Of a stretch of 64,000 nt of DNA, positions 1,637 to 16,775 are shown piece after piece. The notes below the pieces were generated by a model. The model was not told the DNA's origin. It worked only from the letters and a program-made list of their open reading frames with translations, and ran no database searches. This DNA comes from Ruditapes philippinarum (Eukaryota). Where the stretch lies: contig NW_026854344.1 in NCBI RefSeq assembly GCF_026571515.1, forward strand, positions 310,001-374,000, read 5' to 3'. The position numbers and the translations under genes were made by a program. Position 1 is the first letter of the stretch; every line of letters starts with the position of its first letter.

Positions 1637-1834
1637 AGGAAGTAATGGAATATTCTTTTTGTGTGTTCTAATCTTTCTTTCACAGATGTATTCAATTGCA
1701 TGTGCCAGTTTGTATGTAAAAGGGCAGTGTCTTTTATATTTGATTATATTAAAATACAAATAAATTTTGTGTTGTTAATGACTTACTATTATATTTTTTG
1801 GTTCATTGTTTGTCTGCTTTGTTTATATTTTTAG

Positions 1835-1935
1835 CAATGAAAGATCACATATTCAAGAAAGCTATCAAGTCAGATTACTGTATAGTTACAGGGCTAGCTA
1901 TGGGCATTGAAACTGTAAGGCAGATGGGACATCAG
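1835..1935 (+). other. Candidate upstream exon (5' UTR/uORF or N-terminal extension of the host gene)
   Basis: Pyrimidine tract and ttttag acceptor; CAG|GTAAGT donor; open frame from ATG 1837, MKDHIFKKAIKSDYCIVTGLAMGIETVRQMGHQ, ending in phase 0. Confidence 0.5.
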
Positions 1936-2179
1936 GTAAGTGGATGAAAATCTGAAGTTTATAATTATGTACAAACCAGGAGATTTGATTAATTATGTAC
2001 ACACCAGGTACACATAAATAACTTGTCATTGTCACATTAAAATGTTGTCCCAAACTTGCGCATTTGAAATATGTAAACATAATTTAAAATGTAATATTGA
2101 AAATAAAATTCTAATACTAATTTTAAGCAAAGTCTTTCAATATAGGCAAAAATCACTGAGTGCACCCTAGGATATAGGA

Positions 2180-2378: not shown

Positions 2379-2868
2379 CTGGCCGGTCCCTTTGGCTTAT
2401 CAACGCAGGGTTTCTATTGACGCACATTTCCTGCGTCCTTGACGCAAAAATAGTAACCTAGGACCCTCAATTACTCTTAGTGTGCGTCCATTGGGACGCA
2501 AATTAAATTTTCCTCCGTAAATATCATTTGGAAATTCCTTCCGCTTCTTTAAAGGAAATGACGTAATTTGGTAGACGGGTTCTAAAATTGAATACAGCAG
2601 AGTTATCTTTCTTTCAATTAATAATAATTATTTTCATTCAAAATAATTCAATTTATTTTCGAGAAAGAAATAGTCCGTGTATTACATTAATATTGGTACC
2701 CGTTTTTATTAAGTATGTCATTACACATACGTGCATAAACTGAGCTACAGTCGTTTACAGTTACATTGCTATAAATGCGTGAAAATCGCGCAATGCTCCC
2801 ACTTGCTTTCGACAACGCATTCAGACTGATAGTACCTTAACGAGAATTCTAATTTGCTGTGTAACGCT

Positions 2869-3898
2869 ATGCCACGTGGTCGCAGGACAGCTGTAACATT
2901 GCCTACTCCTCAGGAAGAGGATAGAAATGCTAGAACAACGAGAGGCCGAAAGAGACCAGCTTCTACAGCGTTAACGTTGGAGGACTCCGTTGATGAGCGC
3001 ATGTTGCAGAACGAAGCCGGTAGGTCAAACACTATAGACTTTGAACAAATTCTTAAAGAGTCTCAGATTATTCCAAGCTCAAATTTAAGTAATAGTAATG
3101 AGGGGTGTGGTGCGCAAAATATTTTAGAACTCCCGCTTTCAGGCCCGCGAAAGGCCAGCACGGGTTTAAATTCGGCAAACAATGTGGTAACTACGCCACC
3201 GTTAGCCATGGTCCGCATAGCAGACGATGATATTGCGGCACATGTTCCAAGCTCCCTGAAGCAACAAATTTGCAAGGGTGAATATATTAACCTAGCCCTT
3301 TTGCTCAAAGGGGCTGTTGAGCTATCCGAGTTTTGTTCAGGCAGTTTATATCGCTTGAATGCGAATGGTCAGAAAGAATGTAAGGATACGAATTTTAACA
3401 AACGCCTTTATAATATACATGTCTGATTATTTGTCGGCACATGCAAATTAAATGTATGAACTGTTGCACTATATGTTCAACCTAAGAGAATGCGCTTTAC
3501 GTCAATGAAACGTTGCATTGTGGACGTACGACGAACAGTTTCACCTCCGTCAAGCTATTTCACCCGCCTCATGGTCAAAAATTAATAATGATTTGTGGTG
3601 GCGCTGCATGCAATTGCGCCCCCCTTCCAAAGCCCCATCAAGTTCCGTTAGATACCCGTGTAATGATTTCAATAGAGGTAGATGCTCATGGCGAAATTGT
3701 AAATTTGCCCACGTGTGTAACACGTGCGCGGCTCCTCATCCAGAATTTGCGTGCACTAAAAATCAGTCATCAACAAGTGGAAGTTTTAATCAGTTTAAGA
3801 ATAAGCTGTCAAGTGAGTCTGTAACGCCCCCGCAAAAATCCTTTCGTGCCAGTCCCTTCTACAGAAGAGGCGACTCTAAAAATGGGAGAAAAAATTGA
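2869..3898 (+). pseudogene. gag: Gag-like ORF1 with CCCH/CCHC-type zinc finger, disrupted
   Basis: Motifs HVPSSLKQQICKGEYINLALLL, TNAFIIYMS, YDEQF, CNDFNRGRC..NCKFAHVCNTCAAPHPEFAC. Frameshift near 3390; in-frame stops TAA 3449-3451 and TGA 3506-3508. Confidence 0.85.
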
Positions 3899-5579
3899 TA
3901 GCACAAAAAAAAACGGCCTTAGTTCGTTAGATGAAGTTAATTCTGATATTTTTTGTTTAGCAAAATCACCTGTCAAACTTTCAGTTTTAAGGAAATTATT
4001 AAAATATTACGATCAAGTTGAAGCTTCGTTTTTATTAAGTGGTTTTAAAAACGGCTTTCCTATTCAGTATTCAGGTCCACGTGCTCCACGTGACTCAAAA
4101 AACCTGCGTTCTACTTCACTTAATCCAGAGATAATAAAGTCTCAAATAAGTAAAGAGCTTTCCGCAGGCCGCATCGCTGGCCCATTTAAGAAAAGACCAA
4201 TCAAAAATTTAATTGTATCACCAATTGGTTTAGTGCCGAAAAAAGTGCCTGGTGAATATAGAATGATTCATCATTTGTCATTCCCGCCAGGCGAATCGGT
4301 TAATGACCACATTGATCCAGCGTTATGCACTGTGTAATACACAAGCTTTGATGACGCAGTCAAGATGGTTCAAGATCTAGGTCATAACTGTCAATTATTC
4401 AAGACGGACATCAAAAGTGCATACCGTATTATTCCTATTAAGCCGTGTGATTTTGAATTGTTAGGTTTTTATTTTGACGAGAATTATTACTTTGATAAGG
4501 CCCTACCTTTTGGGGCTTCTATAAGTTGTATCACATTTGAAAGATTTGCACGGTTTTTAGAGTTTTCTGTTGAGAGAAATCTAACTTCTGCGAAATTGTT
4601 GCATTATTTAGATGATTTTTTAGGAGGGGACAGATCTAAGGAAACATGTGCGCATGCGCTAAGAACTTTTAAAGATACAATGTCTGAGCTGGGCGTACCT
4701 TTGGCCGAAGACAAAACGGAGGGTCCGACGGAAGTGTTGACCTTTTTAGGCTTAGAATTAGATACAAACCAAATGTGCGTGCGTATACCTGAGCTTAAAG
4801 TTCTAGAAGTAACAAAAAAAATTCAGGAATGTCTGTCAAATAAGAAAACAACACTTAAGAAAATGCAATCACTAATAGGCTCGTTAAATTTTTGCTGTAG
4901 AGCAGTCATAGTTGGACGACCGTTCATTCGTCGTTTAATCAATTCAATTTGTGGCTTAAATAAACCACATCACCATATCAGAGTAAAAGAAGATATTTGT
5001 TTAGATTTAACTATGTGGTTACATTTTCTGAAACAATTTAATGGGGTTTCCGTTTTTCATGACCGATTTTGGGTGTCAAACGAAGATGTTCAGTTGTTTT
5101 CTGATAGTGCGGGTGGCAAAAACTTAGGTTTTGGGGTATATTTTCAAGGTCATTGGTGTCATGCTAAGTGGCCGGAAGTATGGCATGAGTTGGGCATAAC
5201 AGAGGATATAACGGTTTTGGAGCTTTTTCCCATCTTAGCGGCACTATATATATGGGGTTATGAGCTTAAAAATAAAAAGATACGGTTCAACTGTGATAAT
5301 TTTGCAGTGGTACATATATTGAATAAATTAACTTCTAAATCTGAAATGGTAATGTGTATTGTTAGAGTGTTAACATTACGTTGTTTAAAGCTCAATATTT
5401 TGATTAAGGCTTCGCATGTCCCCGGTTGCCAAAACAATATATGTGACGCTTTATCTCGGTTTCAGTTGACCAGGTTTCGAGAGTTAGCTCCAAACGCCGA
5501 CGAAATACCTTGCTTGGTCCCACCCTTCCTTTGGCACATCTTCAGTTTAGAGCCGGAAAGCTTATTCACTCTGGAATAG
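3846..5579 (+). pseudogene. pol: Reverse transcriptase / RNase H (DIRS-type pol) with one nonsense codon
   Basis: SPIGLVPKK..YRMIHHLS, KTDIKSAYR, LPFG, YLDDF, RNase H FSDSAG / LELFPI / NCDN / NNICDALSR. ORFs 3846-4337 and 4365-5579 share a frame, split only by TAA 4335-4337 (CTV*YTSFDDAV). Confidence 0.93.
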
Positions 5580-6433
5580 CGGCCAACTCAAGGTCAACAT
5601 ACAATACTTCTTTATCGGCCTTTGAGAAATTTCGGTCGCAATATGGGATGGAAAAGCAATCACCGATTCCTGTAAAACATATTATTTTGTTTTTATCATT
5701 TTGCTTTGAGAAAGGTCTGTCACCTAAATCAATCACAACGTACTTGGCAGGGATCAATTATTACCATAAACTTAACGATTTTTACTACATAAAGAAAGTT
5801 TTTATCATCAGAAAATTATTAGAAGGCTGCCATAGAAGTAGAATCTCGCTTGACAATCGTGCTCCTATAACTCTATCAGTTTTAGTTAACATCTGCAATT
5901 CTTTACCTATGGTTTGTTACGATAATTTTGAGGTGAAACTTTTTACATCGATTTTTGTTCTTGCATACTTTGGTCTTTTCCGTGTGAGTGAATTGGTTGC
6001 GACTAGTATTAACCATTGTGAGAATTCTTTACAAGAAAATGATGTGTCTTTTACACATAACAACAATTATTTAATGGTTCGTCTTAGGCATTTTAAAACT
6101 AATCAGAGAGGTAAACCAGTTTTCTTAAAATTACCGAGACAGACTTCACTACCTTGCCCTGTAGAGGCGCTAGAGAATTACTTAGTATGTAGACCGAATG
6201 TCCAAGGTTCATTGTTTTGTCACAAAAATGGTACGGTCGTAACTAGGTCTCAGTTTTCATCAGTTTTATCAAAATCCATCCGTTTTAATTCTACGCTCGT
6301 GGCACCATATAAAAGTCATAGTTTTAGAATTGGTAGAGCTACTGATCTTGCATCATTGGGTTATTCAGCGGAAACAATTAAACAGTTAGGACGCTGGAAT
6401 TCTGGGTGTTTCAATAACTACATTCGAGCTTAA
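5510..6433 (+). CDS. Tyrosine recombinase (YR integrase) of the retrotransposon
   Basis: Catalytic residues intact: FRVSEL (R), FKTNQ (K), HSFRIG (HxxR), GRW, YIR (Y). Overlaps the end of RNase H; no ATG at the 5' end. Confidence 0.93.
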   Translation: MLGPTLPLAHLQFRAGKLIHSGIAANSRSTYNTSLSAFEKFRSQYGMEKQSPIPVKHIILFLSFCFEKGLSPKSITTYLAGINYYHKLNDFYYIKKVFIIRKLLEGCHRSRISLDNRAPITLSVLVNICNSLPMVCYDNFEVKLFTSIFVLAYFGLFRVSELVATSINHCENSLQENDVSFTHNNNYLMVRLRHFKTNQRGKPVFLKLPRQTSLPCPVEALENYLVCRPNVQGSLFCHKNGTVVTRSQFSSVLSKSIRFNSTLVAPYKSHSFRIGRATDLASLGYSAETIKQLGRWNSGCFNNYIRA

Positions 6434-6489
6434 GCCTTTTTAATAAGACATAATTAGCTGTATCTCAAAGGCACTTTTTAACACTGTTC

Positions 6490-7092
6490 ATGTCAAATTA
6501 TTTATTTTTTCTGGTCTATTTATATTTAGATGTTTGGATTCTGGGGGATTCAATCCCATACTGGGCCGGGAATTATGCAAAGAATGCGGCTAAGGAGAAT
6601 TTGGGCTTGAAGGATGTGTCCATTGCCTGGTGGGCAGAGAGAGGCCTCAGATGGGGTGGTTTTAGACGCCTAATAGAAATGCAGGTGTTGTTATCTTTTC
6701 CACCTTCTATTATTTTTATTCATTTAGGTGGTAACGACCTTGTGTCGGTCAATACAGTTCAACTACGACTTTTAATTGAACAAGAAATTATATATTTAAG
6801 GGAAGCCTTTCCTCATACTGTGATAATCTGGGTTGATATTTTACAACGTCAAAATTGGTCAGGCGCTATTAGGGGATATCGACCTATCGAAATGAAAAGA
6901 AAACGCCTTAATCGTCTAGCCAGAAAAATTGTTACGTCATCAGGCTTAAGTGATATCATTATACCAGATATTGATGCGGCCACGGCCTTTTTTCGAGATG
7001 ATGGCGTACATCTCAATTCAGTAGGTTTGGAATTCTATCTAGATTATATTAAGGATGCTATTGTCAAGCATTTAGGAATACGCCATGTATAG
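6490..7092 (+). CDS. SGNH/GDSL hydrolase (esterase) ORF of the element; the true domain probably starts at ~6530
   Basis: Block I ILGDS, block II RG, block III HLGGNDL, block V DGVH, with an intact Ser-Asp-His triad. Confidence 0.88.
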   Translation: MSNYLFFLVYLYLDVWILGDSIPYWAGNYAKNAAKENLGLKDVSIAWWAERGLRWGGFRRLIEMQVLLSFPPSIIFIHLGGNDLVSVNTVQLRLLIEQEIIYLREAFPHTVIIWVDILQRQNWSGAIRGYRPIEMKRKRLNRLARKIVTSSGLSDIIIPDIDAATAFFRDDGVHLNSVGLEFYLDYIKDAIVKHLGIRHV

Positions 7093-7118
7093 ACCTGGAA
7101 GTTGTTACCGGTCTCTTT

Positions 7119-7146
7119 AATAAAAAAAAAAAAAAAAAAAAAAAAA
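7119..7146 (+). other. AATAAA overlapping a 25-nt poly(A) run after the hydrolase stop
   Basis: tttAATAAAAAAA...; A run 7122-7146. Confidence 0.6.
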
Positions 7147-8137
7147 TAGTATGAATAAATTTGGGGGATAAATTAATCAATTTATTGTGGCGAAAATTTA
7201 TTTTAAGAGAAGTGAAATTAATCAATTTATTGTGGCGAAAATTTATTCATGGAAGAAGTCAGATGTGTCACATTTTTTTGCATTAGCCGGTAAACTATTT
7301 TGCATTCGGTTCTGGTTACCCGGTAGCCAATGTTAAATGGTTTCAGTATGGCACATGTGTTTTTATTTAATAAGCTTGAAATTAAATATTAGCGCGACAC
7401 GTCTGGCTTTCTTGCTGTTTCGCTGCATTAGGTACATGTTTATAGGAATCAGGCGAGATACCTCGACTGGTTATTCAGAGCGGCCATTACCTCCATTATA
7501 TATTTTATTGATCTATTTGACTTGTATAAAAGCTATGATACAAGCTGAATTGCAGCGTATGCTCGTACAAAATAAATTTGACATTTAAATTTATTTGGTA
7601 TTCTTTTTTCTTTCGAATAGTAAAATAATTACAGTTTAATACGGAATAAAACGGCGCACACTAGAATTTAGTCGACCTTAAAAAAGCGTCCCAGTCTATG
7701 CGTTTTTTGTTACAAAATAAATCGTAAAACATGTCGGCTGCTCCCCCAATTTTAATGAAAAGTGGCTTACCCGTGGCTCGTCCAAAACGAGACGACCACG
7801 GATATGAAATGCAGCCATTGCGTCTCAACCAAAAAATGTAATCCATTTGCCTCGGAAAATGGAGGTTCGAATTTCCAAAATAGATACATTTGTCCGTCAT
7901 CAAGACGTAGAGCTATATGCAGTTAAACTAATTGATAAAATTAGTCGGACCAGATGTGAAAGATCTTGACTTTATGCAAGTTTCACAAACATTCAGCCAA
8001 ATAAAAGAAATGAAAAAATAAAAAGTAACAATAAATAATAAATGGTTTATATTTCTTATTTTATTTAACAAGGTCAATAAAAATGCATATGTAGTTGAAC
8101 AATGTATATAAATGTAAAGAATGAAACCTAGACAATA

Positions 8138-10979: not shown

Positions 10980-11872
10980 GTAAGGCAGGTTTTTTTTATA
11001 TAACAGCTTTATACGATGCACATATCAAAGATTTCACCTGTTTTGAGCAGATCTTAGATACCAAAGGTGCATTAATCAATATTTCAATTTAAAACAGAAT
11101 GTCTTATTAGTGATCTAATTACTGTAGGACATCATAGACTGAGTGTAACATATTTTATAGAAGTTTGATATGTAGAATCTAAAGTCTTAGTGGAGATATT
11201 TGGCTTAGAAGTACAGGGTCAAGATGAAATTTTCAAGATTATACCTAGAATATGTTAAGAAATATTTGTAATGGCATTGTAGTTGATATCGAAATTTGTA
11301 TAATTATCACAAGTTAAAAATAGTTTTGTATTTCATTTATGGGAAACTAATACTATTTAAAATTTTTGCACATGTTTATATAAAGTTATCTCCCTTCCAT
11401 AACCAAATTGCATAGGGTAGAATAGAACAGTGCATAAAATCATCGTTATAAAATGTGAAGTTCCCTGGCTGAGACTGTGAAACTCACTATCAGTGTAACA
11501 GTGACACACTGTTAGCTTAACAGTGACACACACCATGAGTGTTACAGTGAGACACAACTTCAGTGTTGCAGTGACATACACGGAAATCACATAACCAGTG
11601 ATATTTTTGAACAAAATTATTTATTTGCAGGGACAAGAGTTGTCCACCTCAACTATTTTAAAGATTACATTGATTTTATTTACCTTTGTTAAACCACCCC
11701 CTCCCCCTTAGGTTAACAAATAGGTCAGCTGGAAGTTTAACACTTTTGGCGGAAGTTCATCAGCTCAGTTGCTGGATTTTCACTCGCTTGTTTCAAAAAC
11801 GTGCATGTTGGTTGAAAAAATAGAGTGAATTCTGCAATTTTGGGTCATAAAGGAGATATAGTATTGTTAGTG

Positions 11873-13970
11873 CAGTAAGACACACCATCAGTGTAACAGT
11901 TAGACACACTGTCAGTGTAACAGTTAGACACACTTCCAGTGTAACAGGGAGACACACTGTCAGTGTAACAGTTAGACACACTTCCAGTGTAACAGGGAGA
12001 CACATTATCAGTGTAACAGTTAGACACACTATCAGTGTAACAGTTAGACACACTATCAGTGTAACAGTTAGACACACCATCAGTGTAACAGTTAGACACA
12101 CTATCAGTGTAACAGTTAGACACACTGTCAGTGTAACAGTTAGACACACCATCAGTGTAATAGTTAGACACACTTCCAGTGTAACAGTTAGACACACTTC
12201 CAGTGTAACAGGGAGACACACTGTCAGTGTAACAGTTAGACACACTTTCAGTGTAACAGTTAGACACACTGTCAGTGTAACAGACACACTGTCAGTGTAA
12301 CAGTTAGACACACTATCAGTGTAACAGACACACTGTCAGTGTAACAGTTAGACACACTATCAGTGTTACAGTTAGACACACTATCAGTGTAACAGTTAGA
12401 CACACTATCAGTGTAACAGTTAGACACACTATCAGTGTTACAGTTAGACACACTTTCAGTGTAACAGGGAGACACACCATCAGTGTAATAGTTAGACATA
12501 CTATCAGTGTAACAGTTAGACACACTTTCAGTGAAACAGTTAGACACACTATCAGTGTAACAGTTAGACACACCATCAGTGCAATAGTTAGACATAGTAT
12601 CAGTGTAACAGTTAGACACACTATCAGTGTATTAGTGAGACACACTATCAGTGTAACAGTTAGACACACTGTCAGTGTATTAGTGAGACACACTTTCAGT
12701 GTAACAATTAGACACACCATCAGTGTAACAGTTAGACACACTATCAGTGTAACAGTTAGACACACTGTCAGTGTAACAGTTAGACACACCATCAGTGTAA
12801 TAGTTAGACACACCATTAGTGTAACAGTTAGACACACTTCCAGTGTAACAGGGAGACACACTGTCAGTGTAACAGTTAGACACACTTCCAGTGTAACAGG
12901 GAGACACACTTTCAGTGTAACAGTTAGACACACTATCAGTGTAACAGTTAGACACACTATCAGTGTAACAGTTAGACACACCATTGGTATAACAGTTAGA
13001 CACACTATCAGTGTAACAGTTAGACACACCATCAGTGTAACAGTTAGACACACTGTCAGTGTAACAGTTAGACACACCATTAGTGTAACAGTTAGACACA
13101 CTTCCAGTGTAACAGGGAGACACACTGTCAGTGTAACAGTTAGACACACTTTCAGTGTAACAGTTAGACACACTGTCAGTGTAACAGACACACTGTCAGT
13201 GTAACAGTTAGACACACTATCAGTGTAACAGACACACTGTCAGTGTAACAGTTAGACACACCATCAGTGTAATAGTTAGACATACTATCAGTGTAACAGT
13301 TAGACACACTATCAGTGTAACAGTTAGACATACTATCAGTGTAACAGTTAGACACACTATCAGTGTATTAGTGAGACACACTATCAGTGTAACAGTGAGA
13401 CACACTATCAGTGTAACAGTTAGACACACTGTCAGTGTAACAGTTAGACACACCATCAGTGTAATAGTTAGACACACTTCCAGTGTAACAGTTAGACACA
13501 CTTCCAGTGTAACAGGGAGACACACTGTCAGTGTAACAGTTAGACACACTGTCAGTGTAACAGACACACTGTCAGTGTAACAGTTAGACACACTATCAGT
13601 GTAACAGACACACTGTCAGTGTAACAGTTAGACACACTATCAGTGTTACAGTTAGACACACAATCAGTGTAACAGTGAGACACACTATCAGTGTAACAGT
13701 TAGACACACTATCAGTGTAACAGTTAGACACACTATCAGTGTAACAGTGAGACACACAATCAGTGTAACAGTGAGACACACTATCAGTGTAACAGTGAGA
13801 CACACTATCAGTGTAACAGTTAGACACACTATCAGTGTAACAGTGAGACACACTGTCAGTGTAACAGTTAGACACACTGTCAGTGTAACAGTTAGACACA
13901 CAATCAGTGTAACAGTAAGACACACTATCAGTGTAACAGTGAGACACACTGTCAGTGTAACCGACACACA
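11873..13970. repeat. 24-bp minisatellite (CAGTGTAACAGTTAGACACACTAT), ~87 units, with 20-bp deletion variants
   Basis: Direct periodicity; diverged copies at ~11480-11580. Confidence 0.97.
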
Positions 13971-16775
13971 ACAGTTAACTGTTTATATCTTGTTTCTAGA
14001 AGTTTAAGCAACCTTCTGCTTTTATTTTTTGTTGGAAAAACAATTCATTGTTGTTTCAAACTAAGTATTCCAGTAATTTTATCTTGGAAAAGTGCATCAT
14101 ATCACTGTTAAGCCTTCTTCAAAACATTGTCCCGAGAGCTATTTATAAAGTGTGAAGTTCATTTCTAAAAAGTAGAGGATTGGGAAACGAATCATCTGTT
14201 TTACTAATTCAAATATAGAGAGTGGACCAGTAAATAAGAGGTATTGCGGGCTTTCCTTGTTATTTATGTTTTTTATTGTCGGCAGATTTCATTTTCCACC
14301 TTTATTCTTTTGATTTAACAATTAAATGAAACAATTTATCAAAAAAGAACATATTTAACCTTTAGAAAGGCTGAAGGCCACTTTTAAAGTTGCAATAGTC
14401 TGTAGTAAAACTACCACATTCCATTATGTTCTTAAATTTATTTTTTAACAATGCAGCATTAGATTCGTTTATAGAAATTGTCTTGTTAAAAATTAGTTGA
14501 TCTTTAAAACAATGAAGAAATAATGGCTATATATTCAAGAATTAAATACTTTGAAAACAGGTTACACATAAAACTTCGAAGAATTTTAAAATCTTCAAGA
14601 GTAACACTTGCTTGTAATCAATCATTACAGTTAACTAAATGTGACATGGTAATTTACAAACTTTATTTCTGCCTCAGAAAGGTACTATAAAATGTGAATT
14701 CTTTGAATGATTTCTGTAGATTTTGACAGACCCCGTCTGTTATTCTAATAGACTTAGAATTTTTTATCTGTCTTACAATTTTTTATCTGTCCATCTTCAC
14801 AGAACCACTTCTGCTAAAATTCAGCAGCCCTACAGGAAGTGATCTTGTTCTACCAGATGCTTTAGGATTGGTTGATCCGAGTCATCTAGAGGCATTAGGA
14901 TTGGTTAAGATAAGGGTTGAATTTTTTATTTTTATTTTTGGACAATACTTCTTTTTCTGTTTCGCCTCACGGATATTTGGAATCTGGAAAATACCTTTTG
15001 AAATTATTTTTTTGAAGTTTTGGATTTTAAAACAGGAAGAAAAGTTTGATACTTAAACTTTAGTACATAAAGGTAAGAGAGAGATAAAATTACTTTTGAA
15101 TTTAGCATGATTCATCAACCCAGATAATGAATGCACCTGTTAAATACTGATTTATTATGCTATCTTTAAAATTTGACTTTTTTTGATGATAAAAAAATGA
15201 CTGTAAGATTATATTAGTTAATATTCAAGCTTTCTTAAACATCTGCTATAAGATTGATGATTTTTAATTTACTATTAATAATTCACCGAGTACAGTCAAA
15301 CTTGTGTATTAAGACCATCCTTGTTTACAATCTCCACTATGCACTGTAATTACAAATGTTTTTTATTTATGACATGTTTAAACTGGCCAGTGGACAATAA
15401 TGAAAATACTATAGCCACATGTGTAAGTAAAGTACTGATATGATTTTATAAGATTAAGGTTTTACAGTGACAGAATGTTTCATGTATTTTATCTGTTATC
15501 TATGTAACAGCTGATCTCTTAGTTATTTGCAAAATAGAAATTTGAAACTAAAATTTTTTTATTCAATTTTGTTGATGTATAAATGTGACTTTTTCTGATA
15601 CAGAGATGTTTTTGTTGTTTTTGTTTGTTGTTTTTTTTTTTGTTGTAGAAAAGCTTAAATTAGTCAGTATTATGTAAAGTGTAAGATAAAGATTTTAGTG
15701 ATCCTTCTGTTTAATCCTTGTTTAATTTATCAAAACATTTTGATTAATTACAACATGCCAGCTAGGTTTAATGGATTCATTTTTTTGATTAATTAGTGAC
15801 TCAAAAAATTATAATTATCATGATAACACATTTTATCAGTATCTTTATTTTCTATAATTGGAATATAAAAGTAAAAGTTATGTTGTACCAAGATAGCACA
15901 AATTCGTCAGTAATTATCGAACATTCTATTTTATTGTTTGACGTGAGTTTATAAGCTAGCCCTGTCTTAAACCAGGGGGCTTGAATAAATGTCCGTTTAT
16001 TTACCTTTAATAAGAAAATGCCATCCATCTTAGGAATGTAGAGTGAAATCCTGTCCATGTTGTAAAGTGGCGTAACTTGATAAGCCCTACAAATCCGCAG
16101 GTAAATATAATATCTGACCTGAAATATAATAGTGGATGTAAAATTTTTCAATTTACTTACCACTGATTTTATAATGTGTTTAGTTGTAAGTGGGAGATTT
16201 ACATGTTTATGAGGGTTGAACAATTTTAAGGGAGTATTAAAATTGAATGGAATTTTAGGTAAATAACCATCATTTTGAATTCATTTTAGACATGCATATA
16301 CTTATTTCTGTATAAGACTTAATTGAGTTAAAAATCTTTCTTTTTTTAAACTTTTTTCTTTTTCAATATTTGCAGTTTGGTATCTTCTTTGTTAAATTGA
16401 CACATTGAATTAATTATTTGAAGACAGATATTACAACATTAAATATAGATGTAAAGTAAACTCAGCTTATAATGATATTCAGGGGACCTCCAAATTTATA
16501 TTGTCATATCAGAGAGTAAACCACTTTAAAAACAGAGCATGTTAAAATTGAGGATGTAAAGTGTGTTGCAATCTTTTTTTTATGTTTTTTAATTTTATGT
16601 GGTAGCATGTGTCTAAATGGTCAAAGAGCATGTTTTGAAAAGTATGATTATTTAATAAAAAGTAGTTATGTAGTGATCTCAAAGTAATACATGCCTTTCT
16701 CTACAGTGATACCTCACCTTTGAATCATTACATAGCCTCTTCTCTTATTGTGACAGTCCTCTAAATGACAGTCCT

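Follow-up and report, generated by a model that had tools for sequence, protein, structure and literature searches.

The DNA analysed here (the window) is a stretch of 64,000 nucleotides (nt) from the clam Ruditapes philippinarum (NCBI RefSeq assembly GCF_026571515.1, contig NW_026854344.1, positions 310,001 to 374,000 of the forward strand), and all positions below are counted from its first letter. Judged by its domains, the element at 2616-7629 is a Ngaro-type tyrosine-recombinase (YR) retrotransposon. Pfam found reverse transcriptase (RT), YR and SGNH hydrolase domains in that order, with matches to PF00078, PF02899 and PF00589 and, after the YR, to PF13472 for the hydrolase (E 5e-8). The same scan of the element gave zero integrase family matches, so no DDE integrase was seen, and no methyltransferase domain, which is a DIRS/PAT feature, at E<=0.05. 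We assigned gag by its position and a weak zinc-finger match (E 0.032). Comparison with other copies makes it highly probable that a short first exon, the start of gag, is joined by GT-AG splicing to either the hydrolase or the YR, and that the spliced mRNAs, which likely make both proteins, are sometimes copied back into the genome. The features concerned are listed here, with a slash at each exon border and lengths in amino acids (aa) or open reading frame (ORF) codons.

2616-2851, plus strand: split direct repeat A1, the 5' end of the element; recurs on the 3' side in sister copies L031, L033, L083 and L084
2869-3019, plus strand: coding part of the shared first exon, a 50-aa Arg-rich Gag start with an RGRKRPA motif; also the N-terminus of database protein P0001
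2869-3898, plus strand: gag with a CCCH-like zinc finger, ATG at 2869; broken in the window copy
3020-3025, plus strand: shared phase-1 donor CCG/GTAGGT, in 4/4 full-length copies; 5' edge of the segment absent from L083-L085
3813-3818, plus strand: GTGAGT, proposed second donor; private to the window copy and considered non-functional
3825-5579, plus strand: pol (RT, RNase H), in frame +1 relative to gag
3839-3847, plus strand: TCC TTT CGT in the gag frame within the gag/pol overlap, a predicted +1 ribosomal frameshift site, from TTT_CGN conservation
5446-5465, plus strand: phase-1 YR acceptor TTTCAG/TTG, lying over RNase H codons DALSRFQ; the homologous site is the join in L138, L142 and L219
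5466-6433, plus strand: tyrosine recombinase exon; first Met at ORF codon 68, leader join open for 373 codons including the stop
6490-6492, plus strand: nominal ATG of the hydrolase ORF; inside the intron and not conserved in frame
6505-6529, plus strand: T-rich tract and phase-1 hydrolase acceptor TTTAG/AT; exact join in L083-L085
6530-7092, plus strand: SGNH hydrolase exon, from Pfam, structure model and invariant residues
7278-7629, plus strand: split direct repeat B, where the window copy stops, without A2-spacer-B2

Compared with L031, in which gag stays open over 352 aa, the gag of the window copy is broken by three gaps near 3371-3397, and the pol of the window copy has a premature stop at 4335-4337; two sister copies have a pol open for 584 aa. 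The YR and hydrolase frames of the window copy are intact. The order in sister copies was A1, ORFs, B1, A2, a 1.47-kb spacer and B2. We found the complete split-repeat set in L031+L081, L033+L082, L083 and L084, and the window copy retains only A1 and one B. This single-B ending is common to the window copy, L032 and L085, and L086 and L087 consist of A-spacer-B only; both forms are compatible with recombination between the repeats. The A2-B2 spacer (L083 2779-4251) contained no ORF of 100 aa and persists in the remnants L086 and L087.

Joins between the gag leader and the hydrolase

A preliminary description of this sequence had proposed that the hydrolase is reached by splicing from gag, and its coordinates hold: the donors at 3019/3020 and 3812/3813 and the acceptor at 6529/6530 are all phase 1. 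In a crude weight matrix, the two donors ranked 1 and 2 of the 270 GTs in 2601-7100, and the acceptor ranked 3 of 125 YAGs by pyrimidine count. Joining 2869-3019 to 6530-7092 gave an open frame of 237 aa. A search of the clam's own genome then returned seven copies with 97-100% identity over the hydrolase, and in three of them (L005-L007, the same as L083-L085) window 2619-3019 was fused directly to 6530 onward. It is the exact ends of the segment absent from these three genomic copies that put the 3019 donor and the 6529/6530 acceptor beyond chance. The three copies have differing flanks, and their first and last bases are those of full-length copies; two of them have all four repeats, with 99-100% identity between the repeats of one copy, and two retain the 237-aa frame. 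L083 showed 0+5 differences from full-length L031 and 2+8 and 3+14 from the other two joined copies, so it is nearer to L031 than to them, which means that the join arose on more than one occasion. On the evidence of these joins the 3019 to 6530 splice is real, and the predicted 237-aa fusion is identical to the database model P0001 (XP_060583688.1, Ruditapes philippinarum). P0001 includes leader variants that are absent from all three joined copies.

The 13 aa read from the ATG at 6490 had been regarded as translated intron, and the copies agree with that: the ATG was in frame and open in just 2/4 unspliced family copies (the window and L031). Conservation also pointed to the splice sites and not to this codon. 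The donor GT at 3020 was kept in 4/4 full-length copies, and across families 39 of 42 unspliced rows had a phase-1 YAG immediately ahead of D-(V/I)-W, as against an upstream in-frame Met in 14 of 42 and none in the other 28 (L034 and L039 were excluded from this count for their shifted register). We therefore rejected the ATG at 6490 as the hydrolase start.

The second donor did not fare so well. Both gag donors are present in the window in phase 1, but the GT at 3812/3813 is private to the window copy, as the site reads CAA/GCGAGT in 3/3 other full-length copies (L031, L032 and L033). No strong phase-1 donor was found at the equivalent place in eight representatives with a full gag, and the zinc-finger part lay within 900 nt upstream of the hydrolase N-terminus in 0/149 fetched loci, overlapping loci being counted separately. 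The GTGAGT at 3813 is a good phase-1 donor that might serve in the window copy itself, but gag is broken upstream of 3812 there, and a Gag-zinc-finger-hydrolase fusion from 3812 to 6530 as a genuine product of the family is hardly credible. The near-full Gag fusion that had been suggested for an intact ancestor was thus not borne out, and the spliced product is the basic 50-aa leader plus the hydrolase, without the nucleocapsid domain.

We grouped the copies into families by DNA similarity and found 14 leader-hydrolase copies. The window's family has three of these, F2 two, F6 five, and F3, F4, F5 and a family sister to F6 one apiece. Together with the three leader-YR copies described below, this made 17 joined copies, with the joins at phase-1 GT and YAG sites, and the same two joins occurred in eight families. 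These counts are lower bounds, because fetching was limited to the best-scoring matches and the first exon of F5 was not used as a query. At the join, unspliced relatives continue with GT (GTAGGT, GTAAGT, GTAACC, GTAAGT, GTAGAG, GTGGGT and GTGAGT), and a YAG precedes the resumption point where it could be seen. Microhomology at the seven junctions measured was 1-3 nt, and both split-repeat pairs were present in 7 of the 12 joined copies examined. In L145 and L266 the hydrolase is present and the YR is missing, but no leader join could be recognised, and these two were left uncounted.

Some other shortened copies were seen in the same families. Six older F6 copies (L216-L218, L220, L223 and L224) all lack an internal segment that runs from gag to about RT residue 190, and at least five of the six seem to have lost the GT donor; they are possibly an amplified non-autonomous derivative. 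The F2 copies L241-L243 have a first-exon match that ends early, with the 3' part of gag adjoining, as a common deletion.

Joins to the tyrosine recombinase and gene models

The preliminary description missed that the same donor also serves the YR, through the acceptor at 5465, and that spliced forms are present in the genome as retrotransposed DNA. Three copies in two families (L138, L142 and L219) have the leader joined just upstream of the YR, with the hydrolase acceptor region still downstream. Their parents have CTG/GTGGGT or CTG/GTGAGT at the donor end and TTTCAG at the acceptor end, and in L142 the leader-YR frame is open for 387 aa. The CAG of the YR acceptor was in exact register in 22 of 30 YR loci.

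Database gene models contain the same two products. The locus LOC132745207 has two isoforms, X1 with leader plus YR and X2 with leader plus hydrolase, and the two share one 60-aa leader, namely the gag start of L050. Model P0069 uses the YR acceptor. Among models named Mercenaria mercenaria, a comparable basic leader precedes the hydrolase in eight and the YR in two.

Proposed expression scheme and its alternatives

The joins to a shared leader likely explain how two genes that mostly have no start codon of their own are expressed. Under the scheme we propose, unspliced RNA would give Gag and, by a +1 frameshift at UUU_CGN, Gag-Pol; splicing from 3019 to 5466 would give leader-YR; and splicing from 3019 to 6530 would give the 237-aa leader-hydrolase. 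The spliced RNAs would retain A1, B1, A2 and B2, and because the terminal repeats are kept, these RNAs could be reverse-transcribed and integrated again in trans by the enzymes of the element. The RT of DIRS-1 is able to act in trans (PMC7192593). With more reserve, we also lean towards the broader view that animal Ngaro elements run a full retrovirus-like programme, with Gag read from unspliced RNA, Gag-Pol made through a +1 frameshift of the influenza PA-X type, and YR and hydrolase spliced alternatively to a single basic, particle-targeting Gag leader, and that their spliced RNAs are routinely re-integrated. If this is true, the spliced and re-integrated copies are a DNA record of the transcript isoforms of the element, and the programme is one not yet described for the DIRS order.

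For Pol, the motif in the gag/pol overlap was the main evidence. TTT_CGN occurred in frame in the overlap of 11/12 family representatives, as against 0.38 expected by shuffling. Of the 30 pol loci, 18 had it; those without it were one family with TTT_CAA/CAG and frame-broken copies. The third position was free, since CGT, CGA, CGG and CGC all occur among the representatives. Frameshifting by +1 has been published for both UCC_UUU_CGU and UUU_CGN (PMC3498833; PMC5052127), and the clam motif is like those of influenza A PA-X and the plant amalgaviruses: UCC_UUU_CGU is identical and stands in the frame of the first ORF, and the ORF that follows is in +1 (same sources). Unlike them, it is a predicted site and sits in the gag/pol overlap of a retrotransposon. 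The part searched (300,000 characters) of a frameshift review (PMC5009743) gave 0 matches for DIRS or Ngaro. We consider that Gag-Pol is probably made by this +1 frameshift. Several things count against it: the motif was first spotted in the window, the representatives were picked as the least broken copy of each family, the shuffle ignores kinship, one family has TTT_CAA/CAG in its place, and in the window's family a phase-1 YAG at 3864 and a Met at 3885 make other routes to Pol conceivable. Pol would then be a third spliced product (3019 to 3865), for which the YAG ending at 3864 is suitably pyrimidine-rich, or would start at Met 3885. We think these routes unlikely, because neither 30 pol loci nor the 80 exon-1 matches of five families included a leader-Pol copy, the Pol acceptor is not conserved in position across families, and the in-frame TTT_CGN is. 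The leader was also absent from the Pol models P0204 and P0183, and P0284 showed no leader-Pol join (three examined of the 120 listed). Several families have no Met before the conserved Pol region.

The joined copies themselves could be explained without splicing, as internal deletions at the DNA level, through template switching or recombination, that chanced on a GT and an AG, with the hydrolase started from ATG 6490. Internal deletions are common in the families studied, and the window and L031 do have this ATG in an open frame, but eight families show the same pair of phase-1 joins, at GT and YAG and with the short microhomology given above, and most unspliced rows offer no in-frame Met, so that the chance of this explanation is next to negligible. 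The joined copies can also be taken to derive from spliced RNA and still not be products of the element's own RT and YR. Long interspersed nuclear elements (LINEs) copy host RNAs, and the joined copies might be processed retrocopies of spliced mRNA made by them, but the joined copies share start and end bases with full-length copies and have complete repeats with no terminal poly(A) run, and we regard a LINE origin as highly improbable. Very unlikely as well is the explanation that splicing is real but cryptic, or a disabling imposed by the host, with joined copies as by-products and the proteins made otherwise. It would fit with the facts that joined copies are unable to move on their own, that splicing takes out gag and pol, and that leader-YR and leader-hydrolase are predicted proteins. 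Against it, both joins give long open frames to ORFs mostly without a start codon, and the position and phase of the sites are kept between families at 40-65% protein identity. The pN/pS ratio (nonsynonymous to synonymous differences per site) of the hydrolase between families, 0.28-0.56 uncorrected, also indicates that it is under purifying selection.

Some observations weigh against expression by splicing to a shared leader and have to be set beside the joined copies. The CAG of the YR acceptor also encodes the Gln in a conserved RNase H motif, and the donor GGT encodes a Gly, so site conservation alone is weak there and it is the joined copies that carry the evidence; the window's own family yielded no leader-YR copy. 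In one of seven families (L292) the parent acceptor was not seen, and the three YAG misses among the 42 rows are three distant families without the hydrolase acceptor, in which GSS replaces GDS. The database models are automatic predictions, and splicing in living tissue is deduced here from genomic DNA copies and these models.

Hydrolase, related systems and minor observations

In the 237-aa product, the residues of the GDS, Gly, GxND and DxxH motifs are Ser58, Gly89, Asn119, Asp208 and His211, and these five catalytic residues were invariant in 30/30 aligned proteins (30 of the 44 matches were aligned). The structure model of the hydrolase had a predicted local distance difference test score (pLDDT) of 88.8, and Foldseek matched it to PAF-acetylhydrolase and GDSL esterases (best E 1.4e-8); a PDB sequence search with the hydrolase gave no match. 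By residues and modelled flavodoxin-like fold, the protein belongs to the SGNH/GDSL hydrolases. The leader is mostly disordered in the model, with one 15-residue helix (pLDDT 56-68). Its length in the genome ranges from 29 to 112 aa, and the MPRGR and RG(R/Q)KR motifs are kept in most families. The RGRKRPA motif is possibly a nuclear-localisation or RNA-binding peptide. More speculatively, the basic leader may target both enzymes to the RNA particle or the nucleus, and the hydrolase may, by analogy, act on lipids or membranes.

Spliced subgenomic mRNAs are used for the avian retrovirus env, which carries a few Gag codons, and for the foamy virus pol, and likewise in gypsy-type elements. The clam element resembles these in having one 5' donor, alternative acceptors and an unspliced RNA that would serve as genome and as Gag/Gag-Pol message. 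It differs in that here the integrating enzyme (YR) and an esterase are spliced and in that the spliced RNAs would keep the terminal repeats and re-integrate.

Ngaro elements carrying an SGNH hydrolase are already known (PMC9210276, PMC7192593, PMC6681497), and YR retrotransposons are described with overlapping ORFs, often without start codons, and with a hydrolase without proven function (PMC9210276). Like the Ngaro elements with an SGNH ORF (Xenopus DIRS-53_XT), the clam element has the order A1-ORFs-B1-A2-B2, with gag, RT/RH, YR and then the hydrolase, and no methyltransferase. In the DIRS-53_XT type, however, the hydrolase is a separate ORF (PMC9210276), whereas the YR and hydrolase of the clam are second exons of a shared Gag leader; the spliced genomic copies and the 1.47-kb spacer also set the clam element apart from the description available in that article. 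The esterase-type ORF1p of the LINE ZfL2-1 is similar in having an Arg-rich N-terminal peptide followed by an SGNH domain (PMC3905857), but in ZfL2-1, a non-LTR element, both belong to a single unspliced ORF1 that also has a coiled coil, and in the clam the protein comes from splicing in a YR element. We did not class the element with the esterase-type LINEs, as it encodes a YR and has split repeats. The listed Foldseek matches of the hydrolase model did not include 4c1b. The binding of phospholipids by ZfL2-1 ORF1p (PMC3905857) gives a lead for the function of the clam hydrolase.

A search for "splic" and "intron" gave 0 matches inside PMC9210276, PMC3783388 and PMC3266345, and the available parts of PMC9341512, PMC13465315 and PMC5009743 had nothing on spliced expression. 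Spliced expression or spliced copies of YR elements were thus not found in the literature searched; the 2004 paper by Goodwin and Poulter, the 2015 one by Poulter and Butler, Repbase and supplements were not covered and may mention splicing. The type of element is known, and the expression scheme and the record of retrotransposed spliced copies appear to be new. Exact routes can now be proposed for all four proteins of a YR element, and the joins define the true N-termini for biochemistry. The intron-less genomic copies are a natural retrotransposition indicator of movement via spliced RNA and mobilisation in trans, and a set of "uncharacterized" clam gene models is explained as transposon isoforms.

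Several minor observations were made. The distant families with GSS for GDS (L147, L149 and L150) have no YAG before the hydrolase domain and may use another acceptor or route; the gag/pol overlap of L150 keeps TTT_CGA. Close homologues of the hydrolase, YR and RT occur among proteins of symbiont metagenome-assembled genomes (Sedimenticola and Thiodiazotropha), on contigs of a few kb, and include P0036, P0040, P0114, P0115, P0195 and P0207; they are likely transposon DNA of the host that was binned together with symbiont contigs. Window 7170-7247, which separates the hydrolase from B, has two identical 33-nt copies, 45 nt apart, and family F2 conserves 7158-7198 at about 85%, unlike the adjoining non-coding DNA. 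Upstream of the element, window 1834-1936 on the plus strand is an exon-like 103 nt with one open frame (TTTTTAG ... CAG/GTAAGT) and no Pfam match above the cut-off. The element may sit in a host intron of the same orientation, and its acceptors could then capture host splicing. Further downstream, window 11479-14000 is a long array of 24-nt tandem repeats with open frames on both strands, which is probably a minisatellite.

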